A DNA stretch of 64,000 nt. Origin: a virus. A program made the position numbers and the translations under genes. The DNA lies in the IMG/VR virus record IMGVR_UViG_3300031576_000023, positions 1 to 64,000 of that record. One strand, written 5' to 3'. The notes under the pieces were generated by a model. The model saw only the letters and a program-made list of their open reading frames with translations, did no database searches and was not told the DNA's origin. How positions within the stretch are numbered: the first letter of the stretch is position 1; each line of letters starts with the position of its first letter. Positions 8,181 to 23,874 of the stretch are shown here, piece after piece.

Positions 8181-9814
8181 TCGCGGACCAACTTGCGCGC
8201 GGCGCGGAGATCATGGCGTCGGACCCGCTGGCGTTCTGCGGGCTGTTCTGGCCCGACATGCGGCTGTACGACAAGCAGCGCGAGATTCTCCTGAGCGTGA
8301 GGGACAACAAGCAGACGATAGCATACGGGGCGAACACGATGGGCAAGGACCGCATCGCGGCGGTGGCGGCCCTGTGGTTCTTCTGCACCAGACAGCCGGC
8401 GAAGGTGATCACGACCAGCAGCTCGAACCACCAGCTCAAGCACGTGTTGTGGGGGGAGATCGACTCGCTTGTGAGGTCGGCGAGCAGGCCAATCGACATC
8501 GCCCTGGACACGCTCCAGGCTCGTAAGCCGCTTCCAGGAAAACCGGGGGAGCACCAGCCGAATACCTATATGATCGGCTTGGTGACGAACGAAATCGAGA
8601 ACTTCCAGGGCCACCACCTCGACGGCTCTGCGTTGCCCCGCGTGCTGTTTCTATTCGACGAGGCCAGCTCATGCCCGGACCAGTTCTTCGAGGCTGCCGA
8701 GTCGCAGTTCCACCGGATGCTAGCGATAGGAAATCCGCTGAACACGCGCACGTGGTTCTACCGCGCCAGGCGGGCCGGCGACGCTCCGATAACAGGCTGG
8801 ACTGGGATGGCGCGGAAGATCATCCACATAGATGGCAACCTCAGCCCTAACGTCGTAGCGGCCAAGAAGTTCTACGCGGCTGGCTTGACTGGAACCCCGC
8901 CGATGGTGATTCCCGGTATCCTGTCATACGAGGAGTACCTGCACCGGCTGGAGTGGCCTCGCCGGATGCGGCACGTCCGCTTGGACGGTGAGTTCCTCGA
9001 CGACGAGGGAGAACGCTTGTTTTCGCAGGCGACCATCGACTTGGCGCAGAGAGTGTGGATTGCCGTAGATGCAGCCAAGAAGCTGAAAAGAACGGTCACG
9101 CGCCGCGGCAAGCAGGTCAAGAGGCCGATGGTCAACCACGGACCAAAGGCCATGGGCATCGACTCAGGGGAAGGCGGAGACTTGACAGTGTGGGTTGTGA
9201 CGGGAAAGTACGGCGTAGTACAGATCGTCGCAAAAAGAACTCCCAACACGGCCGAGATACGCGGCATCACCATCAGGCTGATGCGGCGCCACAAGATCGA
9301 CCCCAGGTTCGTCGCCTTTGATTCTGGAGGCGGCGGAAAAGAACACGCAGACGCCCTGCGCGACAGGGGGTACAACGGGATCATGGACGTGCACTTCGGT
9401 GCCGCCCCAGACAGCGACTGCAAGGGCGAGTACCGAAACATGCGAGCCCAACTCTACGGCCAGGCGGCTGCCCGACTGGTGCCGACAAGCAGCCAGGCAC
9501 GTTTGCTAGCCACCCCTCCAGATGGGTGGCATTCTAGGTGGTCGGCCTGTGGGATTCCGCCGGAGGCCAACCTGTTGGCCGAGGACCTACTGGTGCTTCC
9601 TGTCCAGCGAGATTCAGAGGGTCGTTTGGTACTCCCGCCCAAGGACGCCAGGCCGCACCAGGAGCGACACAGCGGCGTTCAGGGGCCTACGATTCGCGGG
9701 CTGCTGGGACGCAGTCCTGACCACGGAGACGCCTTCGTGCTGGCGTGCTACGCTTATTCGCGCCTGGAGGCGTACTCGGCGATTGAGCGCGTCCGCGGGA
9801 GCGTCGTGCACTGA
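8177..9814 (+). CDS. terL: Terminase large subunit
   Basis: Q motif LYDKQREIL, Walker A-like GANTMGKD, Walker B LFLFDEASS, AIGNP, RNase H-fold MGIDSGEGGD and RSPDHGDAFVLA. Confidence 0.93.
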   Translation: MIADQLARGAEIMASDPLAFCGLFWPDMRLYDKQREILLSVRDNKQTIAYGANTMGKDRIAAVAALWFFCTRQPAKVITTSSSNHQLKHVLWGEIDSLVRSASRPIDIALDTLQARKPLPGKPGEHQPNTYMIGLVTNEIENFQGHHLDGSALPRVLFLFDEASSCPDQFFEAAESQFHRMLAIGNPLNTRTWFYRARRAGDAPITGWTGMARKIIHIDGNLSPNVVAAKKFYAAGLTGTPPMVIPGILSYEEYLHRLEWPRRMRHVRLDGEFLDDEGERLFSQATIDLAQRVWIAVDAAKKLKRTVTRRGKQVKRPMVNHGPKAMGIDSGEGGDLTVWVVTGKYGVVQIVAKRTPNTAEIRGITIRLMRRHKIDPRFVAFDSGGGGKEHADALRDRGYNGIMDVHFGAAPDSDCKGEYRNMRAQLYGQAAARLVPTSSQARLLATPPDGWHSRWSACGIPPEANLLAEDLLVLPVQRDSEGRLVLPPKDARPHQERHSGVQGPTIRGLLGRSPDHGDAFVLACYAYSRLEAYSAIERVRGSVVH

Positions 9815-10059
9815 TGCCGTGCAGGCCGATGGACACACGGAAAGTAGGCGACCCGGTAATGAGGGCCAGACTTGAGACCCCGCTAGCGAGAATCGTGTCC
9901 ACCAGGCTGACTGGAATCCTGGAGAGAAGAGGGATCACCACCGTTAACGAAGTGCTACACTTCACCGAGCGCGAGTTGCGGGCGCTGCCGAGCGTGAGCA
10001 GCGCGGCCATTCGCGAGCTCTTGGAGGCCCTTGGCAGACTCGGGTTCAAGCGGCAATGA
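9814..10059 (+). CDS. Stand-alone RNA polymerase alpha-CTD-like (HhH) protein
   Basis: STRLTGILERRGITTVNEVLHFTERELRALPSVSSAAIRELLEALGRLG aligns by eye with the alphaCTD consensus LSVRxxNCLKRAGIxTVGDLxxxTExDLLKIxNFGxKSLxEIKExL; start may be 9829 or 9859. Confidence 0.75.
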   Translation: MPCRPMDTRKVGDPVMRARLETPLARIVSTRLTGILERRGITTVNEVLHFTERELRALPSVSSAAIRELLEALGRLGFKRQ

Positions 10060-10687: not shown

Positions 10688-12859
10688 ATGTTCACTTCCG
10701 AGCGTTCGGCGGCGGCAGCGGAGGTTGCCGCGAGTCTCAACTTGTGCAAGCAGGCCGGGCCGGTCGAGTCGCACTTAGTCGAGGGGCGAAGGTCTACAGT
10801 CGGCGGCGAGCAGCGCGCAGCGCGCGAGAGCTACGAGCACTACCACGGCCACGTGTTCACGAGCGTCAGACCGATTGCTCAGCGGTGCGCCGGCCAGCCT
10901 GTCCGCGTCGCGCGGTTGCTAGCACCGGGGAAGCGCCCGCCAAGCTCTAAGGCCGTGAGCGACGAGACCTGGGAGCGCAGCTCATGGCTGAGGTCGGCAG
11001 CGCTGGATGATCCAGGCAGGATAGCCGTCCTGGACCAGCACCCGCTGTTGGACGTGCTGTCGAAGCCGAACCGCGTGGGCAACGAGTTCGCGCTCAAGTA
11101 CGTCACGATCGTCAGCCTGGAGATGACCGGCTGGGCGTTCTGGTGGATCACGAGAGATGAGAAGGGCCGACTTTCAATCTGGCACATGCCGACGCACCTC
11201 GTGGAGCCGAAGCACGAGGGGCGGATATTCAGCGGCTGGAAGATTTTCCAGCCCAGCGGCGGCATGCAAGGGAAGGACGTGCCCGCTGAGGAGATTGCAC
11301 CGTTCTGGTATCCGTCCCCCACGGACCCGGTCGGCGCCGTATCACCCCTGAGCGCCAACCGCCGCGCAGTCTTGATCGACGAGTACATCCAGGAGGCCCA
11401 GCAGCGCGCCTTCCAGCAGGGGATCAATCCCGGTATGGCGGTGATCGTCGGCGAGCAGACCGGCAAGGGCGGCGTCAAGTCCCGTCCCAGGCTGACCAGA
11501 AGGCAGCGCAACAGCATTCGCGGCGCGGTGCTGAACCGCATGCGCGGCTTGGCGCACTGGTACGAGCCGCTGATCTTCGACAGGGTTGTTAGCGACGTCA
11601 AGAAAATCAGCAACATTCCCAGCGAGATGGACTTTGCGGGGTCCACGGCCATCAGTCAGTCGCGCGTTGGCCAGGGGTTCGGCGTTGGCAAGGCGCAGAC
11701 TGGAGCCGTGGATGGCATGACCTACGGCGCGCTGGGGGCCGCCGACGCGTTGTTCGTGGACAATACGGTGAACCCGAAGCTGGACTTGCTCGGGCGGTGC
11801 ATCACCGGATTCGTGCTACCGGCGTTCGACAAGACGCCAGGCGTGTTCGTGTTCATCGAGCCGGCCAGGTCTAACGACTCGGTGCAGAGGTTCAACGAGT
11901 TCCGCGCTGGCGTCGCGGGTGGCTTGGTAACGCGCGAGGAGTTTCGCTCGAAGGTCCTGCACATCGCACCTAAGCCCACCGACGGCGAGACCTTGATGAT
12001 GCCGATGGGCGTGCAGGAGGTCGTTGTCGGCCAGCCGCCGCCGGCCGCACCTCCGCCAACTACGCAACTAGGACAGCCGGCGCCGACGGAGCTACCGGCT
12101 CAAGTCGGCGCCCAGAACGGACAGCCAAAGCCGGAAGGCAAGGAGGATAGCGCCGATCAGGCGCTACCCTTTCGCGGTAAGCAAGCAGGCTGGCAGGCGC
12201 TGGCTGGCACAGAGCCGCTGGTAGGATCGGCTCGCGTATTTGACGAAGCTGAACATCCGCGCGACGAGGGAGGCAGGTTCTCGTCTGGTGGAGGCAGTGC
12301 TTCGGCGGAGGCCGCTGATGTTGCCAGGGGACGGCCGACAATACCTAGCGAACGGATCGATCATGAGCCACCGAAGCAGAAGATGGTCGCGCCGCCCCAG
12401 CCGAGCGGAAAACCAGGCAGGGCGGCCGGTGGGTTCACGGCGACGGGCCAGACCAACACGGAGCTCGGCGACATGGCCGAGAAGGTCGCGGAGCAGTACG
12501 GGCTGCGCAGGATCATCCCAGAAGGCGAGCGGCGGAACCCGCTCGACCTCGAGTGGGATCACTCAGGCATGGCGTTTGAACTGAAGGCCGTTACCACCGC
12601 GAGCACAGAGTACAAGGTCCGCATGAAGGCCAAGGAGGCCGCCAGCAAGCGCGCCTATGCGAAGCGCAACAAGCTGAAGGCCGGAGTGATGATCATGGTC
12701 ATGGACACGAAGGCGCGGCGCGCATACACCTACTGGCGCAATGGCATCGGGCAATACCGTTTGTCGAAGGGGAACCTGTCTGAGTGGAACTACATGGGCA
12801 GCGTGAAATATTCCGGCAAGGCCAAGAAGGCGTTTTGCCCGACTGGTGAGGGCATCTGA
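10688..12859 (+). CDS. HK97-family portal protein fused to a C-terminal PD-(D/E)XK nuclease-like domain
   Basis: Portal motifs HPLLDVLSKPN, SLEMTGWAFW, GAVSPL, EMDF, LVTREEFRS; then Pro-rich linker, FDEAEHPRDEGGRFSS, and E..LG...E / PLDLEW / FELK nuclease pattern. Confidence 0.88.
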   Translation: MFTSERSAAAAEVAASLNLCKQAGPVESHLVEGRRSTVGGEQRAARESYEHYHGHVFTSVRPIAQRCAGQPVRVARLLAPGKRPPSSKAVSDETWERSSWLRSAALDDPGRIAVLDQHPLLDVLSKPNRVGNEFALKYVTIVSLEMTGWAFWWITRDEKGRLSIWHMPTHLVEPKHEGRIFSGWKIFQPSGGMQGKDVPAEEIAPFWYPSPTDPVGAVSPLSANRRAVLIDEYIQEAQQRAFQQGINPGMAVIVGEQTGKGGVKSRPRLTRRQRNSIRGAVLNRMRGLAHWYEPLIFDRVVSDVKKISNIPSEMDFAGSTAISQSRVGQGFGVGKAQTGAVDGMTYGALGAADALFVDNTVNPKLDLLGRCITGFVLPAFDKTPGVFVFIEPARSNDSVQRFNEFRAGVAGGLVTREEFRSKVLHIAPKPTDGETLMMPMGVQEVVVGQPPPAAPPPTTQLGQPAPTELPAQVGAQNGQPKPEGKEDSADQALPFRGKQAGWQALAGTEPLVGSARVFDEAEHPRDEGGRFSSGGGSASAEAADVARGRPTIPSERIDHEPPKQKMVAPPQPSGKPGRAAGGFTATGQTNTELGDMAEKVAEQYGLRRIIPEGERRNPLDLEWDHSGMAFELKAVTTASTEYKVRMKAKEAASKRAYAKRNKLKAGVMIMVMDTKARRAYTYWRNGIGQYRLSKGNLSEWNYMGSVKYSGKAKKAFCPTGEGI

Positions 12860-15800
12860 TGGCGTTTGTCTTGTGGACTAGCGAAGAGGACGGCATCGAC
12901 CTCGGCAATCCGCTCGACCTATTCATCGCGTTCGCGGAGGTTGGCGATGTCGCGAGCGGCGACGAGTACGAGGAGCTGCGCGGCGTCCCGCTCGCTGGCG
13001 AGGACACGGTAAGCGCGGAGTACGCCGACAAGGTATCCCGACAGGCAGCCGACGCCCTAAAGCTAGGCGGCATTGGCGATCACGGACGATGGATTCTCGG
13101 ACGGCTTGCTGGAACGACCTCCGACGAAAAGGCTGCCGCGTACTTGCACCACGGCGACACGTTTCGGACGGCGTTCACGAGGGCGTGGCTCAAGCGCGCC
13201 GACGAGCGAGAGGAGCGGCTCGTAGCGGTAGTGCGCCGGTTTCTATCTGAGCAGGCAGCCGAGATCGTCCGCAAGCTGCCGTCGATCGGGCTGAACGCCG
13301 ACCCGACGTCCGCTGCCAAGCGCGCGTTCAAGGCAAAGAAGTGGAACGACAGGCTGCGCAGGGAGATGGGCGTCTGGCTGGCCGACACGATGGCGCAGGG
13401 GGCGGCGCTGGAGCTGAACGCGACCGAGAAGCGGCGTGCCGCTGCGGGGACGATCGAGAAAGCCGAGGGCTGGGAGATCAGCCCCGAAGACCTGCTGGAC
13501 CTCTCCGTTGACATCCCGCAGCAGGTGCTCGACGGGATTGTGGGCCACACGAACGACATCCTGGAGCAGGACTACTGGGACGACATCAACGAGACCACGC
13601 TCGACAAGCTGACGCTGGCTATTCGCGACGGGATCGACGCCGGAGAGACGCGGCGGGAGATCACGGCGCGTGTGCAGGAGGCCCTGGGGGAAGAAGGAAA
13701 CCTGGCGCGGGCGCGGGCGATCGCCAGGACTGAGTCAACGGGGGCGATGAACGCCGGACACCAAGAAGCGCGCAGCTACTTAGAAGACGAAGGCGTCATC
13801 GAGGGAAAAACGTGGCTCAGTACGAGGGATGCCCGCACGCGAGAGACGCACCTGGAGATGGACGGCCAAGAGCGCGAGAACGATGAGATGTTCGACCTGC
13901 CGGACGGGGAGCAAGCCTTGTATCCTGGCGCGCACACGCTTAGCGCTGGTGAACGAATCAACTGCCGCTGCGTGGCTTCAGCTAGCACTGTATTCAGTAA
14001 GGGTTGGCGCCTCGGTTGGTTGAAGGCTGAGCGCGTGTCCGACGACGCGGACTCTAAGGCGTTTTGTCCTACCGGCCCCGGCGGCGGGATAGACCCAACG
14101 TGCTCGCCAGGCACTGGCAGCCAAGCAGGCGGAACACAGGGTTTCTCCGCCGGGATTGACACGAGCAAGTGGTCGCCGACGCATTCCTCGGCCAAAGCGG
14201 CGAAGAACAAGATCGGCGCCATGGAGGCGCTGGCCGGCACGGGCGACGTCGAGAAGTTGCTGGCTGCGAAGCCGTCGTTTGGGAACAACCCGAACAGCTA
14301 TCAGAAAGCGGTCATCAAGGCGCACGAAACCCTTGTCGCGCAGGTGCAGGCCAGCGCGCTGGTCAACTCGCCGATGGCGGACGCAGCCGAGGAGGCCGAG
14401 GGTGTTCTCAATATATCTTCGTGGACTAAATCTGGTCCGCAGCTCGGCTCCAACAAGGGCGGACAGTACCTGGCCGAGGACGGGACTAAGTATTACGTGA
14501 AATTCCCGAAGGACGAAGCGCGGGCTAGAAACGAGGTACTGGCGTCCAAGCTGTACCAGGCGGCGGGCAGCAACGCGGCAGAATTGAGCCTGGTCGAAAC
14601 ATCCGGCAATATCGGCGTAGCGTCCAAGTGGATCGACGACAGCAAGGAGGCAGAATTGGGCGACGCGGCCTCGCGAGAGTTGGCGCAGCAGAGCTTTGCC
14701 ACGCACGCCTGGTTGGCGAACTGGGACGCGGTCGGAGACGTGTCGCAGCCGGACAACATCAGGATTGTCGGAGAAGGCGCGGCGGCGCACGCCGTCACGA
14801 TGGATGTTGGCGGGTCGCTGGAGTACAGGGCGCAAGGCGGCGAAAAGGACTTTGGAGATCTGACCGGCGAGTGGAACACGCTTCGGAACTCCACAATCAA
14901 TTCGACCGGCGCAGTCGTATTCGGTGATATGACGCCGCAGCAGTTGGTCGAGAGCGCTGCCAAGGTGTCAGCGGTCGATGACACGACCATCCGCGCCTTG
15001 GTAGAAAAGTATCACCCCGGAATCGCGAGCAAGAAAACCGCGCTTGCCGATACGCTCATCTCTCGCAGGGACGACATCACCAGTCGCGCAGCGGCGCTTG
15101 GCTTGCCGGCTGGAGTAATCGAGGCCGGGCAGTCGGCGGCAGACTCGGTCCCGCCAGCCGTGCCGCCTCCGCCTAAGTTCGGTGGGGCTACGACTGCGAT
15201 GTACCAGGCCAAGGTCAACACAATCCACGAGCTTGCGAAGGCCGGAGACATAGCCGGTATCGAAGCGATCAAGACAACGGCTGACGCGAAACAAGGATAC
15301 ACGAAGAAAATTCACGCCTACAAGGCGGAGGTCCTGGCATCGCTCGGCGCTGGCGGTAAGGTGTCCGCCGCGACAGAGGCGCAGTCGGCGCTCAAGGCGG
15401 CGTCGGCCGTAAAGATCGACGCGACTGTGCTTGCAGAGCCTCCAGAATTCTTCGGGACCTACGCATCCGCGAATGCCGTCATCGTCGCCGAGGTGCAGAA
15501 GGTCGCCGCCACTGGAGACCTGGATGCCCTGAAGGGCATGGCTTTCAAGAGTCCGAAGCTGACGGAGTGGCACGCGAGAGTTGTGCACGACGTTGCCAGC
15601 CAGCTTAACCAGCCGCCTCCGTCGAAGTCGCTGAACAGCAAGCTAAGTGACTTGGCGGCGGCGGCGCGCGTTGTCAAGGGCGGTACCGCCGAGAAAATCG
15701 GCCACTACAGTGTGCTCGCAAAGTCTGCAGGTATACCAGCGGAGTTTGAAGGGACAGGCGCGACACTTACGACGAAAGACTGGCTGGACGGGCACCAAGC

Positions 15801-16332
15801 GTGGCAGAACCTGCCGTTGGCCGAACAGAAAGCCGTTTCGAATTACACCGAAGATGGCTACATCACAACGAACAAGATTCTTCGCGGTGGAAACCCAACT
15901 GGCTCGCCAGGAGAGAGGAAGATAGCGAGAACAGAAGCGCTTGACACAGCGAACGGCGTAACGAAGGCGTCGATTGTCCTCAAGCCTGGCATAACGCTGA
16001 CGAGATTCCACAACCTAGGAGATGACGACGTGAATAAGCTGGTAGGCGCCGTCGGATCGGTGGTGCAGGACGCGGGAGTCATAAGCACTAGTACAAGTTC
16101 CGATGTGTTCTCAGGCGGCAAAGTACATTGGACGCTTACCGTTGGCGAAGGCGTGCGCGGGCTGCCAGCCGAAGGCTTCTCGGAGGAAGATGGGGAGATG
16201 GAGGTAATGCTGCCACCAAACACTAGGTATCTGATAACAAGCGCCAAACGCCCCACTACTTTGGGCTACAGAGCCATCGACGTCACGGCGGTCATCTTAC
16301 CGTTCCAGCCGGGCCAGTGCTGCCCGCCATAG
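12859..16332 (+). CDS. MuF (minor head morphogenesis) polyprotein with PI3/4-kinase/HipA-like kinase and ADP-ribosyltransferase domains
   Basis: MuF: RARAIARTE, KTWLSTRDARTRETH, INCRC. Kinase: QLGSNKGG, YYVKF, NEVLASKLY, WLANWDAVG, DNI, MDVGGSL. ART: YTEDGYITTNKILR, TR, ISTS, EMEVMLPPNTRY. Confidence 0.88.
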   Translation: MAFVLWTSEEDGIDLGNPLDLFIAFAEVGDVASGDEYEELRGVPLAGEDTVSAEYADKVSRQAADALKLGGIGDHGRWILGRLAGTTSDEKAAAYLHHGDTFRTAFTRAWLKRADEREERLVAVVRRFLSEQAAEIVRKLPSIGLNADPTSAAKRAFKAKKWNDRLRREMGVWLADTMAQGAALELNATEKRRAAAGTIEKAEGWEISPEDLLDLSVDIPQQVLDGIVGHTNDILEQDYWDDINETTLDKLTLAIRDGIDAGETRREITARVQEALGEEGNLARARAIARTESTGAMNAGHQEARSYLEDEGVIEGKTWLSTRDARTRETHLEMDGQERENDEMFDLPDGEQALYPGAHTLSAGERINCRCVASASTVFSKGWRLGWLKAERVSDDADSKAFCPTGPGGGIDPTCSPGTGSQAGGTQGFSAGIDTSKWSPTHSSAKAAKNKIGAMEALAGTGDVEKLLAAKPSFGNNPNSYQKAVIKAHETLVAQVQASALVNSPMADAAEEAEGVLNISSWTKSGPQLGSNKGGQYLAEDGTKYYVKFPKDEARARNEVLASKLYQAAGSNAAELSLVETSGNIGVASKWIDDSKEAELGDAASRELAQQSFATHAWLANWDAVGDVSQPDNIRIVGEGAAAHAVTMDVGGSLEYRAQGGEKDFGDLTGEWNTLRNSTINSTGAVVFGDMTPQQLVESAAKVSAVDDTTIRALVEKYHPGIASKKTALADTLISRRDDITSRAAALGLPAGVIEAGQSAADSVPPAVPPPPKFGGATTAMYQAKVNTIHELAKAGDIAGIEAIKTTADAKQGYTKKIHAYKAEVLASLGAGGKVSAATEAQSALKAASAVKIDATVLAEPPEFFGTYASANAVIVAEVQKVAATGDLDALKGMAFKSPKLTEWHARVVHDVASQLNQPPPSKSLNSKLSDLAAAARVVKGGTAEKIGHYSVLAKSAGIPAEFEGTGATLTTKDWLDGHQAWQNLPLAEQKAVSNYTEDGYITTNKILRGGNPTGSPGERKIARTEALDTANGVTKASIVLKPGITLTRFHNLGDDDVNKLVGAVGSVVQDAGVISTSTSSDVFSGGKVHWTLTVGEGVRGLPAEGFSEEDGEMEVMLPPNTRYLITSAKRPTTLGYRAIDVTAVILPFQPGQCCPP

Positions 16333-16337
16333 CCGAC

Positions 16338-16835
16338 ATGTCAAGCGAAAAACCGATCACCAAGGGCACCGAGCCAGACGTCTTCGGGCGAACTCTATTG
16401 GATGCTGGTTCGTCCGACGAGCATCAGTACCTTGCGGATCCGCGCGTAGCACATGCCCTGCTGTCAGACGTCCTCCAGCAGGCAATGTTTGCCGTGGACT
16501 CGGAACGTTTCGCGGCCTTGGTCGAGACAATAGCGATGCGCACTGCACGGACGTTTCTAGGCGGCCAGGCTGACTATGTTCCGCTGAGGAAATGGAACGA
16601 GCCTGGCGGTATAGACGTGTTTCTCGCGAAATGGCTCGGTGTTGATGAACTAGACCCGACGCGAAGGGTGGCGGGCGCGATCGTGGCCATGTTGGAGGAA
16701 GCAATGGATATTGCGGTTGATGCCTCCAGCATGGCCGCCAAAGCGCGCGACTGGCAGTGGCGGATAGACGAACTCCTGGACAGGTACGCCGCGCTGTTCA
16801 TCGGACTGGACCAGACCACGATGATGATTCTTTAA
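16338..16835 (+). CDS. Hypothetical helical protein, candidate immunity/partner of MuF cargo
   Basis: Starts 5 bp after the MuF-ART stop; acidic and helical; function inferred from position only. Confidence 0.55.
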   Translation: MSSEKPITKGTEPDVFGRTLLDAGSSDEHQYLADPRVAHALLSDVLQQAMFAVDSERFAALVETIAMRTARTFLGGQADYVPLRKWNEPGGIDVFLAKWLGVDELDPTRRVAGAIVAMLEEAMDIAVDASSMAAKARDWQWRIDELLDRYAALFIGLDQTTMMIL

Positions 16836-16894
16836 TGCCCTTGCCAGCCAACCGGTCTTGACGTGCAAGGGGTAGCTGCGTCAGAGTAGACAAC

Positions 16895-19800
16895 ATGCCG
16901 AAGCTGCGCCACCATCCGGCCGACTTGAGTAGCCTCTTGGCCGTGATCCGTCACCGGGACTATCGTGGCGGGATCACCACGGCCCACGCCTACCTCAAGG
17001 ACTTGGAGGGCTGCCTCGTCGGCGAAGCCTGCCCGACCAGGTTTCTCGGTGGGACTAGCGAGTCGCACTGGCGGCGTGCGCTCAAGGAGAGCCGAGCCAG
17101 GCTGGTCTACAGCCACAAGGACATGGCCGTCGTGAATTCCTCGCGGGTAGCCGGCGCGTTCGAGTCGGCCATCGATCAGTCTATGTTCGAGGGCGTCCCG
17201 GCGAACGCCTGCGCCGTGTTCGACTGCGTGGTTACCAGCAAGCGGAAGGACCGAGACGGGGACGTGCTGGAGACGGTCGGGGCCAAGCTGGACCCCGCGG
17301 CGCCGCTCTTGTGGCAGCACCTGCCGTTCGAGCCGATCGGGAAGGTGATCCGCGAGCTGTCGCGCTCCGGCAACCTGATGCAAGCCAGGCTGGCAATTAT
17401 CGACAATGCGCTGGGCCGCGACGCCAATGAGCTGCTGGAGTTCGGGGCGCTGCGAGTCAGCCACGGGTTCATCCCGGAGCTGTTCGAGCCGCTGGACCCG
17501 CAAGACCCCTGGGGCGGATTCAGGATCAAGAAGTTCGAGATCATGGAGGTTAGCCTGGTCTCCGTGCCTTCTAACACTGACTCCGTGGTGACCGCGTTCT
17601 CGCGCCGCAAGCTGCACCACCCGCTGGTCAAGCAGTGGGCCGGCAATCTGTTCGCAGCCAGGCCAGCGCAAGGCAAGGGGAGGCCGGCGGCGCGCGGTAA
17701 CAGCGTTGACCTGCTGGAATCGACGGCCGTCATCGCAATCGACAAGCTTGAGGCCATCTGCCCGGAGTGCGCGGCGCGCGCGAAGAAGCTTGGGCTAACC
17801 GGTCTGAAGGTCTCGGCGCTCGCCAAGCAGATACCAGCGCACCTGCTCGAAGGGCTATGCGATCGTCTGTCAGGCGAGGAGCATCCCTGGGAGGCTTGCA
17901 TGGACATGGACTTCGGCGAGTTCCAGCCGGAGGACCAGGAGGCGTTCTGCGCGTTCCTCAAGCGGGAATGCGGGCTGGACGAAGACGAGGAGAAAGAAAA
18001 GGCCGGGCCGCGCCGGACGCGCGCCGGCCAGCCCATCACGCGAACTATCGGGCACATAGACATCGCTAGCGCTGTGTTCGAGCCGCAGCAGAGAATCCAC
18101 GAGATCGCGGCGTCGTTCATCGGATGCCGCCTGCGCGACTTGAGGCTGTCTGGCACATTCGCGCCCACCTACCGCATGGGCGGGTTTCTATCCGCCGCCA
18201 AGGAAGTTCTGTCCGAGCACGCGCTGGTCGACATGCGCCGCCTGAGCGACGGCGGCTACGAGGGGCCGCCGAAGTACGAGACGATCCAGCTCAACTCGAA
18301 GAAGCGCGCCGAGTTTCTGGTGGAGGGGATCGAGTTCAGGAGTTCCGAGCGGGCAGGACCGTTCCTGGTCTGCTATGACAGGAACTACGGCGGCATCTCG
18401 CTGACGACGTACTGCCACCAGGACAAGTCCGAGGTCTTGCAGGCCGCCGTAGACCGTGCCTGGGAGCTGACCAAGACGACCTACTGTTTTCTGAGGGGCG
18501 AGGCGTTCTCCCTGACTGGCGACTTCCTGGAGCGCACGGACGAGACCTGGAGCGACGTGTTCCTGGAGCCGGTGAACGAGAAGGCGCTGCGCGTCGTGGC
18601 GAAGCAGTTCAACGAGAAGGGCCGGAGGTTCGTGAACCGCGGCATGCTGATGATGGGGGCTCCGGGAACTGGCAAGACGCTGTCGGTCCGCATTCTGCGC
18701 AACGAGTGTCATGGCACATTTATCTGGTGCAGCGCCAAGGACTTCTGGCACACGGGCGGCATGGGCGGCGTCGCGTCGGCGTTCGAGACGGCCAAGGAGC
18801 TGGCGCCCTCCATCGTGTGCTTCGAGGACATCGACAACTGGATCAGCGGCAATGTCATCGACCTGCTCAAGAGCGAGATGGACGGGGTTGGACGGTTCTC
18901 TGGCGTGCTGACGGTCATGACGACCAATTATCCGGAACTCCTGCCAGAGGCGCTGATCGACAGGCCGGGCAGGTTCCATGACGTGCTCAAGTTCGGCTTG
19001 CCGGACCAGGCAGTACGGCTTGACATGCTGCGCAAGTGGCTGCCAGACTTAAACGAGGAGGCCCTGGCTAGCGCCGTGATCGGCACGGACGGGATGAGCG
19101 GGGCGCACCTGTACGAGCTGGCGCAGTTCGCCAGGACGATCCAGGAGCAGGAAGACGGGCCGCCCAGTCAGCTCGGCGTGGCGGTCAACGAGGCCCTGCG
19201 GAAGGTGTCAGAGCAACGTGAGCTGATCGACGAAGTGCAGCGCGGCGGCGGATACAGCAGGCTGAACCGTGGCTTCGAGCTGAACGCTAAGGGGATCGAG
19301 ATGGCAAAGAAGATTGCAAAGAACATTGCGAAGGCGAAGAAACCGGCACCTGGCAAGGATGACGAAGAAGCCGTAGCAGCCTGTGACGAGTGCGGCGGCG
19401 AGATGGTGGACGGGGAGTGCCAGGACTGCGGTATTAAGCTCAAGCCGGACGGCGAGAAGGAGCCGGTCGGTGCTGGCGACCACGGCGTACCAGATACCTG
19501 CCCGGCCTGCGGTACCCCTATGGCGGGGGCCGCCAAGTGCCCGGCTTGCGGGGCCGCCCGCAGCGAGCAGCCCGGCATGAAGGCCAAGGGCGAGGAAGAC
19601 GGCGAGAAAACCAAGGAGGACGCCCCGAACTACCGGGATGCCGGAACGGAGAGTGAGAGTTGCGGGGCCTGCGGAAACTTCGAGCTGAACAGCAGCACCT
19701 GCCGCAAGTTCGGGTTCATCACCGAAAAAACTAAGCTCTGCGACGCATTTCAGCCGGCCGAGGTCACGTCCGATGACCGCGAGACAGCCAAGGCTGTGTC

Positions 19801-20200
19801 TCCTAGGATGGTAACAGCCAAGTCGGGCAGAACACTGAGCACGAAGAACGAGCAGTCCATCAAGGACGCCAGGGACGACGTGCACGAGATCACCAGGCAC
19901 GAGGCGCTGCCAAGGACCGTCGTATCGCTGGCCAAGGGGGCGGTCGCCAAACTCGATAGCGTGCTGGCCAGCGTAGCCAGGCCAGTGCCGCAGCAGGAGG
20001 CCACGGCTGAGGTCGTCACGGCTGGGATCGGCGGAAAGAGCCATGAGGAGGCCCTTGCAGAGTGGTTGGTCTATCACTTGCCGGGCACCGACAGTAAGAT
20101 GCTAGGGACGCTCGGCGACGCGATCGTAGCTGAGCTTGATCGGCGAGGGGTCGAGGAGATCGGTCTGGGACTAGAAGAATTGATGCTGGCTACAGTTTAG
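16895..20200 (+). CDS. HK97-type prohead protease fused to an AAA+ ATPase and Cys-rich domains
   Basis: Protease: KDRDGDVL, LLWQH..PIG, VSHGF, EVSLVSVPSN. AAA+: RGMLMMGAPGTGKT, IVCFEDID, TTNYPELL..ALIDRPGRF. CxxC pairs; APNYR..CGAC..C..CDAF; KSGRTLSTKNE. Confidence 0.9.
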   Translation: MPKLRHHPADLSSLLAVIRHRDYRGGITTAHAYLKDLEGCLVGEACPTRFLGGTSESHWRRALKESRARLVYSHKDMAVVNSSRVAGAFESAIDQSMFEGVPANACAVFDCVVTSKRKDRDGDVLETVGAKLDPAAPLLWQHLPFEPIGKVIRELSRSGNLMQARLAIIDNALGRDANELLEFGALRVSHGFIPELFEPLDPQDPWGGFRIKKFEIMEVSLVSVPSNTDSVVTAFSRRKLHHPLVKQWAGNLFAARPAQGKGRPAARGNSVDLLESTAVIAIDKLEAICPECAARAKKLGLTGLKVSALAKQIPAHLLEGLCDRLSGEEHPWEACMDMDFGEFQPEDQEAFCAFLKRECGLDEDEEKEKAGPRRTRAGQPITRTIGHIDIASAVFEPQQRIHEIAASFIGCRLRDLRLSGTFAPTYRMGGFLSAAKEVLSEHALVDMRRLSDGGYEGPPKYETIQLNSKKRAEFLVEGIEFRSSERAGPFLVCYDRNYGGISLTTYCHQDKSEVLQAAVDRAWELTKTTYCFLRGEAFSLTGDFLERTDETWSDVFLEPVNEKALRVVAKQFNEKGRRFVNRGMLMMGAPGTGKTLSVRILRNECHGTFIWCSAKDFWHTGGMGGVASAFETAKELAPSIVCFEDIDNWISGNVIDLLKSEMDGVGRFSGVLTVMTTNYPELLPEALIDRPGRFHDVLKFGLPDQAVRLDMLRKWLPDLNEEALASAVIGTDGMSGAHLYELAQFARTIQEQEDGPPSQLGVAVNEALRKVSEQRELIDEVQRGGGYSRLNRGFELNAKGIEMAKKIAKNIAKAKKPAPGKDDEEAVAACDECGGEMVDGECQDCGIKLKPDGEKEPVGAGDHGVPDTCPACGTPMAGAAKCPACGAARSEQPGMKAKGEEDGEKTKEDAPNYRDAGTESESCGACGNFELNSSTCRKFGFITEKTKLCDAFQPAEVTSDDRETAKAVSPRMVTAKSGRTLSTKNEQSIKDARDDVHEITRHEALPRTVVSLAKGAVAKLDSVLASVARPVPQQEATAEVVTAGIGGKSHEEALAEWLVYHLPGTDSKMLGTLGDAIVAELDRRGVEEIGLGLEELMLATV

Positions 20201-20229
20201 CCGGCTCGGCTTACCACGAGGAGCAATCC

Positions 20230-21831
20230 ATGTTCGAGATACTTAAGGCGTACCTTGTCGAGAAGCACGGTATGGCGCAGGACGCTACCGAAGAGGACGT
20301 GCGCAAGCAGGCGTACAGCCTGATGGCCGCCGGAACGCTGTCGCACGAGAAGTACGTCGAGCTGACGGCCAAGAATCCGTCAGGTACAGGCGCCTCGCTA
20401 GAGAGGCTGGGAGCGCTGATCGGCGCCGGGGTGCAGAAGGCCGTCGAGCCGCTGGTGAAGAGGCTTGAGGCCGTGGAGTCGCAGGCGATCCCGGCAAAGA
20501 CCTCGGAGGCGATCGGCAGGATTTACGAGCGCGCAGGGCGCGACGAGCCGGCGGGAGTCAGCGAGGCGGAGAAGTTCATCGCCGAGGGGGCCGCGAAGCA
20601 GCCGGCTGGAGGCGTGCGCGTCAAGCGCGCCAGCGAGTCGTACTCGCACACGAAGAGCGCCGCCGTGTACCCCAAGTACCTTAACCGCAACGACAATCGG
20701 CCGCACCCGTTCGCCGGAGAGCAGCTCACGTTCGAGGGGCGCGCGCTCGACGTCGCCAGCCAGGCCGATAGGGCGCTGGCCGGGGCCGTCGTGAAGTGGA
20801 ACCTCGCGCATCAGCTTAAGCAGCAGCACAAGCTCACCGACCACGACGTCGACCTGTTCAATGAGGCCGTGCGGGAGGGACGGTGGTGCGGCGACTTCAA
20901 GGGGCCGGATGGCTTCGAGCGGATTCTCTACGGGGCGAGGCTCGATCCTGCCTGGCACAAGACGATCTTCGCCGACGCGACCAGCGGCGGCACGAACCTG
21001 GTACTTCAGGTTCTTGAGGACGAGATCATCCGCCAAGCGATCCTGTTCGGAGAGCTGTTCCCTTGGGTGGATGTGAAGCCGCTCACCAAGGGCACCTCCG
21101 TGGACACGACCACGCTGGTAAACCTGACAATCACGAGCACAGCCGACGAGGCGACGGCGATGACCGCGCAGTCGACGGCGTCGCTGATCACCAAGCTCAA
21201 CAGCGCCGTGCGCGTGGCCACCGGGACCGTAAAGCTCGGCAGAGATTTTCTGTCCGACATCACGCCGGACATCATGACGGCGATCAACGACAGCTACGCC
21301 GAGCAGTTGCAGTTCTACCTGGACGACAACATCGCCAACGGGGACGGCACGACCGAGCCGCTTGGAATCTTCGTGGCGGCCAGCACGACCAGCGTGAGCA
21401 ACGCCAGCCCGTCTCCGTCCGGCTGGGACGTGGTCGACGTTGAGAACATGGTCAAGGGCCTGGGAAAGCAGTACCGCAACATGGGCAACCCGAGCGTCAG
21501 GTGGGTGTCGAACGACACGACCTACTTTCGGGTGCGCGGCATGAAGGTCAGCACGACGGACGAGCGGAGGATTTTCGGCTACACGCACGAGGACTACAAG
21601 GTCATGGATCGGGGCTGGTCGATCCAGAACTCGATCGCCAACGCGAAAGTGGCCTTCGGGGACCTCAAGAAGTACCGCCTGTGGCGCCGGCTCGGCATGG
21701 AAATGATTGTGGACGAGAGCGGCCAGGCGCTACGCTTAGAGAACTCGGTATTGATCGTCGTGCGGTCGCGATGGGCAGGACGGCCGGTGCTGCCACAAGC
21801 GTTCGCGGTAATGACGAATGCCCAGGCTTAG
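20230..21831 (+). CDS. Major capsid protein, HK97 fold, long N-terminal scaffold (delta) domain
   Basis: Follows protease; KTIFADATSGGTNLV, LDDNIANGDGTTEPLGIF, VAFGDLKKY, final AFAVM. Confidence 0.9.
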   Translation: MFEILKAYLVEKHGMAQDATEEDVRKQAYSLMAAGTLSHEKYVELTAKNPSGTGASLERLGALIGAGVQKAVEPLVKRLEAVESQAIPAKTSEAIGRIYERAGRDEPAGVSEAEKFIAEGAAKQPAGGVRVKRASESYSHTKSAAVYPKYLNRNDNRPHPFAGEQLTFEGRALDVASQADRALAGAVVKWNLAHQLKQQHKLTDHDVDLFNEAVREGRWCGDFKGPDGFERILYGARLDPAWHKTIFADATSGGTNLVLQVLEDEIIRQAILFGELFPWVDVKPLTKGTSVDTTTLVNLTITSTADEATAMTAQSTASLITKLNSAVRVATGTVKLGRDFLSDITPDIMTAINDSYAEQLQFYLDDNIANGDGTTEPLGIFVAASTTSVSNASPSPSGWDVVDVENMVKGLGKQYRNMGNPSVRWVSNDTTYFRVRGMKVSTTDERRIFGYTHEDYKVMDRGWSIQNSIANAKVAFGDLKKYRLWRRLGMEMIVDESGQALRLENSVLIVVRSRWAGRPVLPQAFAVMTNAQA

Positions 21832-22468: not shown

Positions 22469-22921
22469 ATGGAAGTGATTATCGAAGTCGCCACGCCCCC
22501 TGGCGCCGAACGGCCCAACTGTCCGCTGTACTGCGCGCCGCTGGGCAGCCACCTGATCGGGCGGATCAGGGTCGCAGACAACCCCATTCCAGTCCATGAG
22601 GACTTGCAGGCCCTACCGGAGATTCCAGGCCACCGTGTTTCTCTGGACGTCAAGAAGCGCCGCGTGCGAGTCTACCATCCGCTGGCCGATCCGAAGATGG
22701 CCGACCGACTGGAGAAAATACAGGCCCACCAGAAGCGCGAGTTCGGCAGCGAGCGCTCGCCACCGCGAGAGATAGTTCTGGAAAATATGACCGACGCTGC
22801 CACGAGAGAATGGGCGCAGTGGCTGGAGGCGTGCGTGGCCGGAAAGCTTGTCACACTGCTCCAGGGCGAGCTTCCTCCGCCAGAGCTGAGGGACGCCGAG
22901 AGCAAGCAGCCGGTGGCTTAG
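22469..22921 (+). CDS. Hypothetical protein
   Basis: ATG 22469 after GGAG; in frame with ORF 22439..22921. Confidence 0.6.
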   Translation: MEVIIEVATPPGAERPNCPLYCAPLGSHLIGRIRVADNPIPVHEDLQALPEIPGHRVSLDVKKRRVRVYHPLADPKMADRLEKIQAHQKREFGSERSPPREIVLENMTDAATREWAQWLEACVAGKLVTLLQGELPPPELRDAESKQPVA

Positions 22922-22932
22922 CAGGTGGCCTG

Positions 22933-23874
22933 ATGCGCGTCGCGGTCGTCAGCCCTTTGCCGGCAGCCCTCAAGCACGACAAGTACGCGTGGGTCGCGGA
23001 GGGCGTGCTGGACGCCGGCCACGAGTGCGAAAGGGTCCACGGGCTGCCGGCGCTTCGGCAGGCCGATAAGTCTTGCGAGTTAGTGCTGTTCTGCCAGTAC
23101 GCGGGCGGCCTCAACCCGCGCGATGTGGCGGATATCACTGCCACAAAGCGTGCTACCTGGGCGGTCTGGTGGTTCGACCTGCTGGCCGTGGACGCGTCGC
23201 GCCAGCTTGCCGAGCAGGACCATGTGCAGACCTACCTGCCGTTCCTCTCGGCGATGGATGTCGCGTTCGTCAAGGAGCGCGGCATGCTGGGCGAGTATGC
23301 GGCCCTCGGGGTTCGGGCGGCCTGGCTCGACCAGTGCTGCTGGCGCGGCATGCCGATGGCGTCTCTCTCCGAAAATCCCGAATGCGACGTGCTGGTGGCC
23401 GGGCGGAGCACGAACGAACGGCGGTGGCGCGATGTGGCGCTTCTGGTGCACGCGGGGTTCCGCGTTGCGTGGCTCGGACCATCCGGCGGGGGCCGGCTCC
23501 CGGACGGGCTAGCGGCCGTGTGGCCGTGGGTCAAGCCTGAATTGATGCCTGCCTACGCCGGCAGGTGCAAGGTCGCGCTTTCCGTGGACGCAAGGCAGGA
23601 CGTGGACGGGTACACCAGCGATCGCCTGCACTTGCTCTGCGGGATGGGCGCTACGACCCTCCACCGACGTGGCTGCTGGGCGCCAGACTGCCGGGCGTTC
23701 TTCTACCAGTCCGATGACGAGATGGTCTCGCTCTGCCGTGCTCTGTGCGACACGACTATTCAGTACCGGCGCGCGAACGCCTCCGGGACAAGGGCAGTCG
23801 AGATGGACCGCCACACCTACGGCGACCGCATCGGCGAGATCGTCGCCTGCTTGAGTGCGAGCTGCGCTACATGA
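22933..23874 (+). CDS. Glycosyltransferase, CgeB / Glyco_trans_1_2-like (GT-B)
   Basis: WWFDLL, DVLVAG, CKVALS...YTSDRLHLLCGMG, HTYGDRIGEI C-terminal motif. Confidence 0.75.
   Translation: MRVAVVSPLPAALKHDKYAWVAEGVLDAGHECERVHGLPALRQADKSCELVLFCQYAGGLNPRDVADITATKRATWAVWWFDLLAVDASRQLAEQDHVQTYLPFLSAMDVAFVKERGMLGEYAALGVRAAWLDQCCWRGMPMASLSENPECDVLVAGRSTNERRWRDVALLVHAGFRVAWLGPSGGGRLPDGLAAVWPWVKPELMPAYAGRCKVALSVDARQDVDGYTSDRLHLLCGMGATTLHRRGCWAPDCRAFFYQSDDEMVSLCRALCDTTIQYRRANASGTRAVEMDRHTYGDRIGEIVACLSASCAT

Follow-up and report, generated by a model that had tools for sequence, protein, structure and literature searches.

Introduction

Effectors fused to portal and MuF proteins, and their delivery by the phage head, are already in print in sections of three papers (PMC5512222, PMC5576092, PMC9503650). 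In the passages on polyvalent proteins (Iyer 2017, PMC5512222; Iyer 2022, PMC9503650), enzymes are fused to portal and MuF near the terminase-portal module, ADP-ribosyltransferase (ART) and kinase domains are typical, and head packaging and injection are proposed; parts of the 2022 paper name Alt/VIP2 ARTs on MuF, and Nudix domains on MuF, on the portal and on a capsid-processing serine peptidase (PMC9503650). The MuF polymorphic toxins, as set out in portions of Jamet 2017 (PMC5576092), carry C-terminal toxin domains on a MuF protein encoded directly after the portal gene; ARTs account for 14% of 191 MuF toxins, delivery with the DNA is hypothesised, and the toxins are tied to temperate phages and bacterial competition. 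In the capsid-targeting-sequence (CTS) system of T4 (Alt, the internal proteins and the gp21 protease), sections of PMC5512222 describe an R-S-E ART loaded in the prohead behind a short leader, and partial accounts of the ejection proteins of T4 and SPN3US/phiKZ have the prohead protease trimming cargo that is injected with the DNA. In the HK97 gp4-type arrangement, the gene for the S78 protease immediately precedes that for an HK97-fold major capsid protein (MCP) with an N-terminal delta domain, and FtsH, Lon and Yme1 combine a classical AAA+ domain and a protease in one chain. The locus analysed here shares features with each of these systems.

The window is a 64,000-nucleotide stretch of IMG/VR record IMGVR_UViG_3300031576_000023, which represents an uncultured phage of 85 kb; the record, bounded by 127-bp terminal repeats, is rated as complete. 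Four co-directional, uninterrupted ORFs (portal, MuF, protease gene and MCP) were found between positions 10688 and 21831, where a reading of the sequence alone had placed them. That sequence-only reading had proposed that the portal, MuF and protease genes all carry enzyme cargo, and the enzyme domains on all three proved to be real by Pfam, AF2, Foldseek and conserved residues. The cargo assignment stood for the portal and for MuF but not for the AAA+ domain of the protease, which is constant, untagged and not exchangeable. We consider it fairly probable that the portal and MuF are tagged, exchangeable effector carriers and that the protease-AAA+ fusion is a head-assembly module, the two lying side by side. 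Loading by three head proteins had also been taken as undescribed, a claim that is not supported, since passages of PMC5512222 and PMC9503650 already report effectors on MuF, on the portal and on a capsid-processing serine peptidase.

The portal protein carries a nuclease-like domain

The portal gene and its parts are as follows.

10688-12859, + strand: portal gene (P0001); Phage_portal at residues 114-422, E 1.3e-24 (Pfam)
10688..12217, + strand: portal core, residues 1-510; Phage_portal; phrog_2662 positions 66-479
12239..12280, + strand: HPR tag FDEAEHPRDEGGRF, residues 518-531, then a Gly/Ser-rich linker
12455..12820, + strand: PD-(D/E)XK nuclease-like cargo domain, residues about 590-711 (AF2, Foldseek, conserved residues)
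12824..12856, + strand: shortened CPTG tag at the C-terminus (KAFCPTGEGI, then stop); pLDDT <50

The C-terminal domain was modelled with a pLDDT of 90 (AF2), and its best Foldseek matches were Hje/Hjc resolvases and restriction enzymes (1ob8_A, E 4e-4). Across 30 sequences, E598, D620, E631-x-K633 and K654 were invariant or nearly so. The domain is found in 195 representative clusters at E<=1e-3, and a Pfam scan of 60 members, out of 88 listed with at least 300 aa, placed it with portal domains (7 members, from four families), MuF (5), a 2H family (6), and Zeta toxin, NUDIX and ART (3 each). Portal and nuclease domain are likewise joined in one protein in P0154.

The portal stop overlaps the MuF start codon (TGATG), and both the end of the portal ORF and the start of the MuF ORF lie within a tag copy in which the words GGCGTTT and GGCATC are repeated. 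This junction looks rearranged, and the record is a metagenome assembly, as would be expected if the fusions were assembly or frameshift artefacts. However, no ORF is interrupted, the record with its terminal repeats is rated complete, and the architectures recur in independent sequences of 40-60% identity (P0005, P0066, P0154). Since independent homologues have each architecture, we regard an artefactual origin, which the sequence-only reading had named as a way to be wrong, as extremely improbable.

The MuF protein carries a kinase-like domain and an ADP-ribosyltransferase

The MuF gene and the ORF that follows it comprise these features.

12859-16332, + strand: MuF gene (P0002); Phage_Mu_F at residues 250-373, E 4.8e-16 (Pfam)
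12859..13158, + strand: acidic N-terminal region, residues 1-100; no Pfam family at E<=5
13159..14034, + strand: MuF head-morphogenesis domain, residues 101-392; Phage_Mu_F; positions 472-707 of phrog_2662, a portal-MuF profile that also matches the portal
14056..14109, + strand: CPTG tag KAFCPTGPGGGIDPTCSP, residues 400-417; disordered in the AF2 model
14146..15099, + strand: protein-kinase-like (CtkA/HipA-like) domain, residues about 430-747; HipA_C E 0.059; AF2; Foldseek
15136..15738, + strand: helical spacer region, residues about 760-960, kept with kinase and ART in homologues
15781..16329, + strand: R-S-E ADP-ribosyltransferase, residues 975-1157; C-terminal end QCCPP
16338..16835, + strand: small helical ORF (ATG at 16338) that follows the ART and precedes the protease gene; may encode a partner or immunity protein; Pfam and PHROGs give no family

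The middle domain (pLDDT 86, AF2) matched the H. pylori kinase CtkA first in Foldseek (3akl_C, E 9.5e-7) and protein kinases next, and K548, E559, D623, N633 and D649 were invariant in 26 sequences. At the C-terminus, ADPrib_exo_Tox was found at residues 982-1145 (43.1 bits, cut-off 23.4; Pfam), with PDB profile matches to Lmo0066, Tre1, C3, Vip2 and iota toxins and with the residues R1049, STS 1076-1078 and E1113-M-E1115. We class this ART as Alt/VIP2/C3-type. The spacer is conserved alongside both enzymes in P0065-P0068 and in 11 of 84 IMG/VR ORFs. By a reading of the homologue table, the 89 homologues of the kinase-like region beyond the query include 30 that list MuF, 5 with a portal family and 39 with PF03496; of the 372 pattern matches in IMG/VR, 360 encode a relative. 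P0066 joins portal, MuF, tag, kinase and ART in a single chain of 1595 residues, while P0065 (787 aa) and P0068 (759 aa) are without MuF in the Pfam column and begin with a leader of 25-31 residues, then the tag. The nearest relative apparently has the kinase-ART unit as a separate protein (P0065), so tethering to MuF is not required. Compared with the Jamet MuF toxins, two enzymes are present here on one MuF, parted by a tag and a helical spacer, and no immunity gene was identified; the words "kinase", "linker", "cleavage" and "motif" do not occur in the Jamet text (PMC5576092).

The nuclease, kinase and ART domains were found in none of 39 related loci. Ten portal/MuF ORFs of relatives were scanned, of which some have no extra domain (L042) and others carry DUF559/REase, Hint or an ATLF-like match, or extensions of unknown kind. 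What the portal and MuF carry therefore differs among relatives, as is expected of effectors of the polyvalent or MuF-toxin type (Iyer 2017, Jamet 2017, Iyer 2022).

Short tags open the cargo modules

In this phage, each module begins with a short, disordered tag: HPRDxxGRF precedes the nuclease and KAFCPTGxGGGxDxxC precedes the kinase-ART unit. These two leaders had been pointed out beforehand; both are present, and both recur elsewhere far above chance. The pattern [HQ]PRxxxGx[FWY] had 34 sites, spread over 26 of 149 homologues, compared to 0.1 in shuffles, and a further count gave 16 sites (0.1 in shuffles); the CPTG tag gave 12 sites (0.0 in shuffles) and 11 sites (0.01 in shuffles). The tags sit between domains, as many as four in one protein, and the CPTG tag stands at the module start in P0065, P0066, P0068, P0071, P0074, P0076 and P0151 (11 sites). 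In 10 of the 84 IMG/VR ORFs, an HPR tag precedes the kinase domain by at most 13 residues, in the place that the CPTG tag occupies in this phage. As judged from sequence comparison, the tags HPRxxxGxF and KxFCPTGxGGGxDxxC are widespread and strongly non-random, and in many phage proteins they stand at the start of cargo modules. A full-text literature search gave no paper on these tags or on the protease-AAA+ fusion, and the portions of PMC5512222 and PMC9503650 covered contained no mention of the tags, of this PD-(D/E)XK family on portals or of AAA+ on a prohead protease; "AAA+" occurs nowhere in the 2017 text (PMC5512222).

Alternatively, the tag might have no part in signalling, as a flexible linker or as a joint at which domains recombine and are shuffled, and the extra domains might not be delivered to the next host but work in the producing cell or on the particle itself, for example with the nuclease targeting DNA of the host or DNA being packaged, the kinase and ART modifying proteins of phage or host late in infection, and the AAA+ serving as an assembly chaperone. 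The modules are found in many combinations, the portal/MuF junction in a tag copy with repeated words looks like a rearrangement at the tag, and, as part of the 2022 paper suggests, ARTs near packaging genes might counter immunity against the packaging apparatus (Iyer 2022, PMC9503650). However, the presence of the modules on four portal families and on MuF would be difficult to account for if their position in the head were of no importance, the MuF-free P0065 and P0068 keep an N-terminal leader and tag that a pure linker would not need, and the amino-acid sequence of the tags is conserved among very diverse proteins. We therefore find this alternative quite improbable, and retain the reading of portal and MuF as effector carriers.

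The prohead protease is fused to an AAA+ ATPase

The protease gene is divided as follows.

16895-20200, + strand: protease gene (P0003); Peptidase_S78, AAA (Pfam)
16895..17674, + strand: N-terminal region and S78 prohead protease, residues 1-260; Peptidase_S78
17675..18031, + strand: variable Cys-containing linker, residues 261-379, differing among homologues
18032..18604, + strand: family-specific N-domain, residues 380-570; FL[KR]GEAFSL block
18605..19294, + strand: classical AAA+ ATPase, residues 571-800; Pfam AAA at 584-701, E 6.6e-18
19295..19714, + strand: three Cys4 zinc-ribbon-like motifs, residues about 830-936; DZR E 3.7e-4, below cut-off
19715..20197, + strand: C-terminal tail, residues 941-1101; K-[AS]-G-R-x-L-S-x-x-N-E block; candidate scaffold or capsid-docking region

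Peptidase_S78 was found at residues 136-237 (32.7 bits, cut-off 21; Pfam), and the blocks WQH (140-142) and SHGF (189-192) are conserved in alignment A1. The AAA+ domain matched Cdc48/p97/NSF (E 1e-30) and YjoB (E 5.8e-19) in PDB sequences and has invariant Walker A (588-595), FEDID (643-647), TTN (676-678), DRPGRFHD (689-696) and SGAH (735-738) motifs, with E-D in place of D-E in Walker B. Unlike Cdc48/p97 and the YjoB/Bcs1-type ATPases, its N-domain is without a detectable PDB sequence relative, and sequence searches of PDB and Pfam gave no match. As a lead only, Atlas neighbours carry the name YjoB family. In contrast to FtsH, Lon and Yme1, the protease here belongs to the unrelated prohead serine proteases and is usually N-terminal; the N-terminal position in P0003 also differs from the systems of Iyer 2017 and 2022. 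Compared with HK97, P0003 is longer by about 840 residues, which make up the N-domain, AAA+, zinc ribbons and tail, and the delta domain has 244 residues.

P0005 matches P0003 over 99% of its length with 52% identity. Protease, N-domain and AAA+ occur together in 33 of 45 database relatives (phmmer), and N-domain with AAA+ in 8 more, 3 of which list PF04586 in the precomputed column; loci scanned with Pfam likewise carry protease and AAA+. The AAA+ part is the best-conserved portion, and the fusion is retained in relatives whose portal and MuF have no cargo. Across the family there was one HPR match (0.03 in shuffles) and no CPTG tag. The order is permuted to N-domain-AAA-protease(-MCP) in P0036, P0037 and L050, the nearest AAA-free proteases are MCP fusions (P0047-49), and shorter forms of 445-600 aa exist, most on contigs <3 kb that may be fragments. 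The tail block is common to P0005, P0006, P0016, P0022, P0023 and P0026-29, and in the protease-MCP fusion P0049 it stands between protease and MCP. Since the fusion is constant, untagged, kept without portal or MuF cargo and permutable in order, we read it from these conservation patterns as a morphogenetic and probably ATP-using module. Against this reading, the place of the AAA+ between protease and tail means that it would be packaged in the head, and it might yet be an effector that is ejected.

The proposed lysine cleavage pattern is at chance frequency

The MCP gene follows directly.

20230-21831, + strand: MCP; Phage_capsid at residues 254-529, E 2.6e-25 (Pfam)
20230..20961, + strand: delta (scaffold-like) domain, residues 1-244, ending in the invariant K244
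20962..21828, + strand: mature HK97-fold major capsid protein; Phage_capsid

The sequence-only reading had picked out K244 as a maturation site, and this Lys is indeed invariant in 7 of 7 MCPs of the lineage; it occupies the position at which HK97 is cut. The broader pattern it had proposed, cleavage after Lys followed by a small residue, did not hold up: in the four proteins, K followed by A/G/S/T was observed 13, 24, 18 and 8 times, against 12.6, 24.8, 19.2 and 9.4 by composition.

These counts bear on the original model, in which portal, MuF and protease are all polyprotein carriers and an HK97-type protease, cutting after Lys, frees a stoichiometric set of ejected effectors. Besides K244, it is favoured by the K at position -3 of the CPTG tag (11 of 11 sites in the kinase set), by the K before [AS]GRxLS in 6 of the 7 tails having the block, and by the place of the AAA+ between protease and tail, so that it would lie inside the procapsid. 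Moreover, a passage of PMC9503650 mentions Nudix on a capsid-processing peptidase as probable cargo, prohead proteases process packaged proteins in T4 and SPN3US according to partial accounts, and the lambda connector is cleaved (PMC3185693). Against it, Lys with a small residue is at chance frequency, CPTG-type tags of other proteins have N at -3, no Lys was seen near HPR tags, and the AAA+ is the constant, untagged and most conserved part, found also where relatives lack cargo on portal and MuF. We consider the all-carrier model unlikely and prefer the division into effector carriers and an assembly module.

Discussion

Under the preferred division, tethering to portal and MuF, or else the tag, would bring the effectors into the procapsid, and they would probably be trimmed at or near the tag. 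Such processing, which we infer, would differ from that of T4, where the protease is of gp21 type rather than S78, the leaders and cut sites are different and neither portal nor MuF carries the cargo as a fusion. The protease and tail would put the ATPase inside or at the procapsid, where the AAA+ most likely contributes to maturation through an ATP-using step of unfolding or remodelling; one possible task is clearance of the 244-residue delta domain and of internal proteins. The effectors would then exit with the DNA and may act on the newly infected cell.

Organization of the head module

The IMG/VR source record of this uncultured phage, whose first 64 kb make up the window, is 85,328 bp long, is rated complete and has 127-bp exact repeats at both termini. 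Within it, the portal and MuF genes sit in the terminase-portal packaging module, in order after TerL, and the protease and major capsid protein (MCP) genes follow. The coordinates of these features, as positions in the window, are as follows.

Features of the head module
8177-9814, TerL (phrog_2)
TerL-portal interval, three small ORFs
10688-12859, portal (P0001), Pfam Phage_portal at residues 114-422
12859-16332, MuF (P0002), start overlapping the portal stop, Pfam Phage_Mu_F at residues 250-373 and ADPrib_exo_Tox at residues 982-1145 (43.1 bits against a cut-off of 23.4)
16338-16835, small ORF beginning with ATG, 3' of the ADP-ribosyltransferase (ART)
16895-20200, protease gene (P0003), Pfam Peptidase_S78 at residues 136-237 (32.7 bits, cut-off 21) and AAA at residues 584-701
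20230-21831, MCP (P0004), Pfam Phage_capsid at residues 254-529

The ORF adjoining the ART, a candidate for a cognate immunity gene, belonged to no family in Pfam or PHROGs, and one of the small ORFs between TerL and the portal (9814-10059) gave a weak, below-cut-off match to the C-terminal domain of the RNA polymerase alpha subunit (E 6e-4). Elsewhere in the window, a C-5 cytosine DNA methyltransferase is encoded at its start (106-1461, E 1e-50), and two glycosyltransferase genes lie within the virion module (22810-23874 and 25509-26282). A related metagenome locus, L005, carries a GT1+GT2 fusion upstream of the portal (2541-4241), and genes for glycosylation may characterize this lineage.

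Among deposited phages, megablast found no DNA-level relative of the region and tblastn found no full-length relative of P0003; the search returned 141 records, none covering at least 80% of the query, with matches confined to the AAA part and reaching at most 19% of it. Pattern scans of IMG/VR with P0003 or P0004 singly gave nothing useful, and a scan of genome contigs recovered one 27-residue match and one true relative; the latter comes from a Thermoanaerobaculia metagenome-assembled genome (MAG), where it sits on a contig of 7.6 kb. Hints as to the host were limited to the Pirellulales MAG names on four database relatives of P0003 (P0038 and P0047-49) and to a sulfatase gene in the phage itself (2488-3783; Pfam Sulfatase, E 7e-40). 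A sulfatase is an unusual gene for a phage, and its presence would fit a sulfatase-rich candidate host such as Planctomycetota.

Enzyme domains on the portal and MuF proteins

The sequence-only reading had listed a nuclease on the portal, a kinase-like domain and an ART on MuF, and an AAA+ ATPase on the protease, and this list proved correct. Pfam recognized the carriers and two of the passengers; for the two passengers that had no Pfam match (nuclease and kinase-like), structures were predicted from alignments of homologues and then compared using Foldseek. A PDB sequence search with the nuclease or the kinase region alone gave no match.

The model of the portal C-terminal domain (pLDDT 90) had the alpha-beta-beta-beta-alpha-beta core fold of the PD-(D/E)XK nucleases, and its top Foldseek matches were the archaeal Holliday-junction resolvases Hje and Hjc, restriction enzymes and the SPARDA nuclease (three matches at E<=1e-3, TM 0.46-0.55). 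The PD-(D/E)XK catalytic residues E598, D620 and E631-L-K633 were invariant or at least 90% conserved in alignments of 30 and 60 sequences, and K654 was likewise kept. The middle domain of MuF (pLDDT 86) was predicted to adopt a bilobal kinase fold, with 90 Foldseek matches at E<=1e-3; the Helicobacter pylori kinase CtkA (E 9.5e-7, TM 0.43-0.55) was followed by dozens of protein kinases. In this domain K548, E559, D623, N633 and D649-x-G-G were invariant among 26 sequences, and by analogy we take them to be the ATP-binding Lys, the helix Glu, the catalytic Asp and Asn, and the metal-binding Asp of a kinase. The domain fell below the Pfam HipA_C cut-off (E 0.059, 13.4 bits against 30.5), and PF07804 was listed in the precomputed Pfam column for two homologues of the kinase region.

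The third enzyme is an R-S-E ADP-ribosyltransferase of the Alt/VIP2/C3 type (PF03496). In addition to the Pfam score, its motifs are present on P0002 as R1049, S-T-S at 1076-1078 and E1113-M-E1115, and also in the A4 alignment consensus; its profile matched C3, Vip2, iota toxin, Tre1 and Lmo0066 in the PDB. The kinase-ART modules of P0002, P0065, P0066 and P0067 end in a common Q-C-C-P-P C-terminus (window 16315-16329 in P0002), whose Cys residues, with the two in the N-terminal tag described below, could make up a four-Cys site.

These fusions are not assembly or frameshift errors, since the same architectures recur in independent database proteins. P0005 aligned with P0003 over 99% of its length at 52% identity, P0154 has the nuclease domain seen in P0001 placed after a portal, and P0066 is a single chain of 1595 residues containing portal, MuF, tag, kinase-like domain, helical spacer and ART.

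Exchange of the passenger domains among carriers

The passengers of the portal and MuF are exchangeable tagged modules, with nuclease, kinase and ART found in many architectures. The nuclease domain occurred in 195 representative clusters at E<=1e-3. Pfam was run on 60 of the 88 listed members of at least 300 aa; among these 60, seven carried one of four portal families and five MuF, while six carried a 2H phosphoesterase family and three each Zeta toxin, NUDIX and ART, with other enzymes, including Acb1 and GNAT, on single members. For the kinase-like region there were 89 homologues besides the query, of which 30 list MuF, five a portal family and 39 PF03496. In IMG/VR, a relative was encoded in 360 of 372 pattern matches, and an ART also lay downstream in 24 of 84 ORFs (80 loci kept). 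For the kinase-like polyvalent proteins P0074, P0093, P0099 and P0130, the precomputed Pfam column lists Intein_splicing or a second ART family (PF01129, PF18760). Thus the C-terminal enzyme domains also appear in further conflict proteins and differ from one relative to the next, as in MuF polymorphic toxins and phage polyvalent effectors.

To sample the lineage of the phage, 39 related loci were taken from IMG/VR and from JGI/ENA metagenomes; no ORF in any of them was matched by the queries for nuclease, kinase-like domain, spacer or ART (E<=1e-4). Ten portal or MuF ORFs of these loci were scanned with Pfam. L042, L003 and L005 had portal-MuF without a further domain, L063 had only HEAT repeats separating portal and MuF, L056 had a 410-residue extension without family assignment, and L057 gave a weak match resembling anthrax lethal factor (E 1.5e-4, below the cut-off); the scanned ORFs of L061, L044, L049 and L039 had no Pfam family. 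In L046 (5212-8433) the portal-MuF/MuF protein carries a DUF559/REase domain and a Hint/intein-like match at its end, and in L040 (1962-3770) it ends in a Hint-like match; such an end is either an intein bearing a homing nuclease or a module that releases a toxin by self-cleavage. Since the extensions differ or are absent among the lineage loci, the cargo varies, as it does in polymorphic toxin and polyvalent systems.

Two short tags open the cargo modules

The passengers on the portal and MuF open with short leader peptides, the HPR and CPTG tags. Both had been noticed in the sequence-only reading and are real sequence tags, recurring far more often than in shuffled sequences. In the nuclease-domain set (149 proteins) the pattern [HQ]PRxxxGx[FWY] was found 34 times, spread over 26 proteins, and in the kinase-domain set (89 proteins) 16 times, over 14 proteins (0.1 in shuffles for each set); C[PGA]TGxGG was found at 12 sites in the nuclease set and 11 in the kinase set (0.0 and 0.01 in shuffles, respectively). 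Long proteins contained up to four copies, which separate domains and lead into Gly-rich stretches, and across the whole 85-kb genome there were only three tag sites, all within the portal and MuF genes. In 10 of the 84 IMG/VR ORFs an HPR tag precedes the kinase-like domain by at most 13 residues, at the place where P0002 has a CPTG tag, indicating that the two tags are interchangeable in position. P0065 and P0068, for which the precomputed Pfam column gives no MuF, begin with a leader of 25-31 residues and then a CPTG tag. In the structure models of the portal and MuF domains the tags were disordered, as would be expected of linear peptide signals. The possibility that the Cys-containing tag derives from an intein or Hint domain was rejected for this phage, as only 11 residues separate its Cys residues and a Hint domain is absent downstream. 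The tags were not found in published full texts, a weak test, as the motifs may be spelled otherwise.

The protease and AAA+ domains form a conserved fusion

P0003 is an HK97-type prohead protease (Peptidase_S78) by its Pfam score, by the conserved WQH and SHGF blocks, in whose His and Ser we presume the catalytic residues to lie, and by its adjacency to the MCP gene, which starts 30 nt 3' of it. The sequence-only reading had treated its AAA+ domain as cargo like that of the portal and MuF, and this part of the reading was not supported as stated, because the domain is untagged, constant and the best-conserved part of a fusion carried by the lineage. Among the 45 database relatives (P0005-P0049), phmmer found protease, N-domain and AAA+ in one chain in 33 and N-domain with AAA+ in eight more, for three of which the precomputed column lists PF04586; the remaining four had a protease without the ATPase, three of them fused to the MCP. 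Because the protease-AAA+ module served to fetch the 39 lineage loci, all of them necessarily contain it; in all eight loci with a recognized MCP it directly precedes the MCP. The tags yielded a single HPR match in the protease-AAA+ family (0.03 in shuffles) and no CPTG match.

The ATPase belongs to the classical clade of AAA+ proteins, with Walker A and B, sensor 1, a second region of homology with Arg fingers, and sensor 2. In 18 sequences the motifs GxPGTGKT (Walker A), FEDID, TTN, DRPGRFHD and SGAH were invariant; FEDID is the Walker B motif (P0003 residues 643-647, window 18821-18835) and reads E-D where D-E is the usual order. Its best PDB matches were Cdc48/p97/NSF (E 1e-30). A match to YjoB (7w42, E 5.8e-19) started about 60 residues ahead of Walker A (query residue 137), and Atlas neighbours carry the YjoB name, which is a lead only. 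The N-domain had no Pfam match, and its profile found nothing credible in the PDB.

In P0036, P0037 and L050 (1500-4757), the order is permuted, with N-domain, AAA+, protease and then Phage_capsid (precomputed Pfam column) in one chain. The occurrence of the same partners in two orders argues for functional coupling and against a passenger. In a subset of the family, the tail that follows the zinc ribbons contains a K-[AS]-G-R-x-L-S-x-x-N-E block, which in P0049 sits between protease and MCP, and we take the tail of P0003 as a candidate scaffold-like or docking region. Overall, we read protease-AAA+ as a conserved morphogenetic fusion, not interchangeable cargo. One conceivable arrangement is an ATP-dependent prohead protease ring (Lon/FtsH-like or Bcs1/YjoB-like) at or inside the procapsid, which would unfold the long delta domain, remove it and process the portal and MuF modules at their HPR and CPTG tags; we consider this arrangement improbable. 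We know of no ATP-using head-maturation step in textbook assembly pathways. A prohead protease-AAA+ fusion was not found in the literature as judged from titles and abstracts, and supplements could hold such architectures.

Hints of proteolytic processing

The sequence-only reading had also placed cleavage sites in the linkers, after a Lys followed by a small residue. Such sites occurred at chance frequency in the four proteins (13, 24, 18 and 8 observed versus 12.6, 24.8, 19.2 and 9.4 expected). Its unifying model, in which all head proteins are polyproteins bearing cargo that the prohead protease frees by cutting after Lys, is not supported as stated. At the MCP, K244 was invariant in seven of seven lineage MCPs and directly precedes the conserved [TA]-[IVL]-x-x-D-x-x-S-G-G stretch with which the capsid fold opens, a place that we take to be equivalent to that at which HK97 is cut after a Lys. 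Around the tags, all 11 CPTG tags in the kinase set have a Lys three residues ahead of the tag Cys; this position is occupied by N in the CPTG-type tags of the nuclease set, and Lys is absent near the HPR tags. In lambda, the portal is described as processed by a head protease (PMC3185693), and packaged proteins are reported to be processed in T4 and SPN3US. For cleavage, such observations are hints, not proof.

A tag lies at the junction of portal and MuF

At the junction (window 12824-12900), the portal ORF runs into a copy of the CPTG tag and terminates within it, reading KAFCPTGEGI and then stop, and the MuF ORF starts at an overlapping ATG (TGATG), reading MAF...GID. Across this stretch two short words, GGCGTTT and GGCATC, recur. 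Portal and MuF form one polypeptide in L003, L005, L046, L056 and L058 (phmmer), in L042 and L063 (Pfam) and in P0066, and PHROG 2662 covers both proteins of the present phage. It is reasonable to infer an ancestral portal-cargo-MuF polyprotein that was later split at the tag. A programmed frameshift joining portal and MuF was rejected, as a slippery site is absent at 12845-12862.

Relation to known systems

Effectors fused to MuF and portal, with ART and kinase components, appear in Iyer et al. 2017 (PMC5512222) on polyvalent proteins, where assemblin-like peptidases are described as rare and C-terminal in position. Jamet et al. 2017 (PMC5576092) on MuF toxins count 14% of them as ARTs and propose delivery from the head, and Iyer et al. 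2022 (PMC9503650) place Alt/VIP2 ARTs often on MuF and describe Nudix fused to MuF, portal and capsid-processing serine peptidase. Since fusions to MuF, portal and a capsid-processing peptidase have been published, all three carriers are already in print, and one phage with three enzymes on its portal and MuF is a further instance of a published kind of carrier. In the capsid targeting system of T4, an N-terminal CTS is removed by a gp21-type protease at a consensus site; in contrast, the present phage has an S78 protease and different tag peptides, and is thus not a member of that system and at most alike in its working. The observations of the sequence-only reading, its domains and leaders, largely stood, and its interpretation stood in part, for the cargo on the portal and MuF: these extensions are tagged effectors, probably packaged in the head, with tags that we did not find described.

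Implications for head maturation and host takeover

Effectors packaged in the head are the first phage proteins to meet the cell, ahead of phage gene expression. If delivered together, the nuclease, the kinase-like enzyme and the ART would make a compact take-over or anti-defence kit. The tags offer a simple handle for finding such cargo in metagenomes, and are a candidate capsid-loading or processing signal that can be tested. The conservation of the protease-AAA+ fusion suggests that ATP is used during head maturation in some phages, and an ATP-dependent prohead protease, if it exists, would mean that the maturation of heads and the release of cargo include a step that consumes energy, one unknown in the phages studied.
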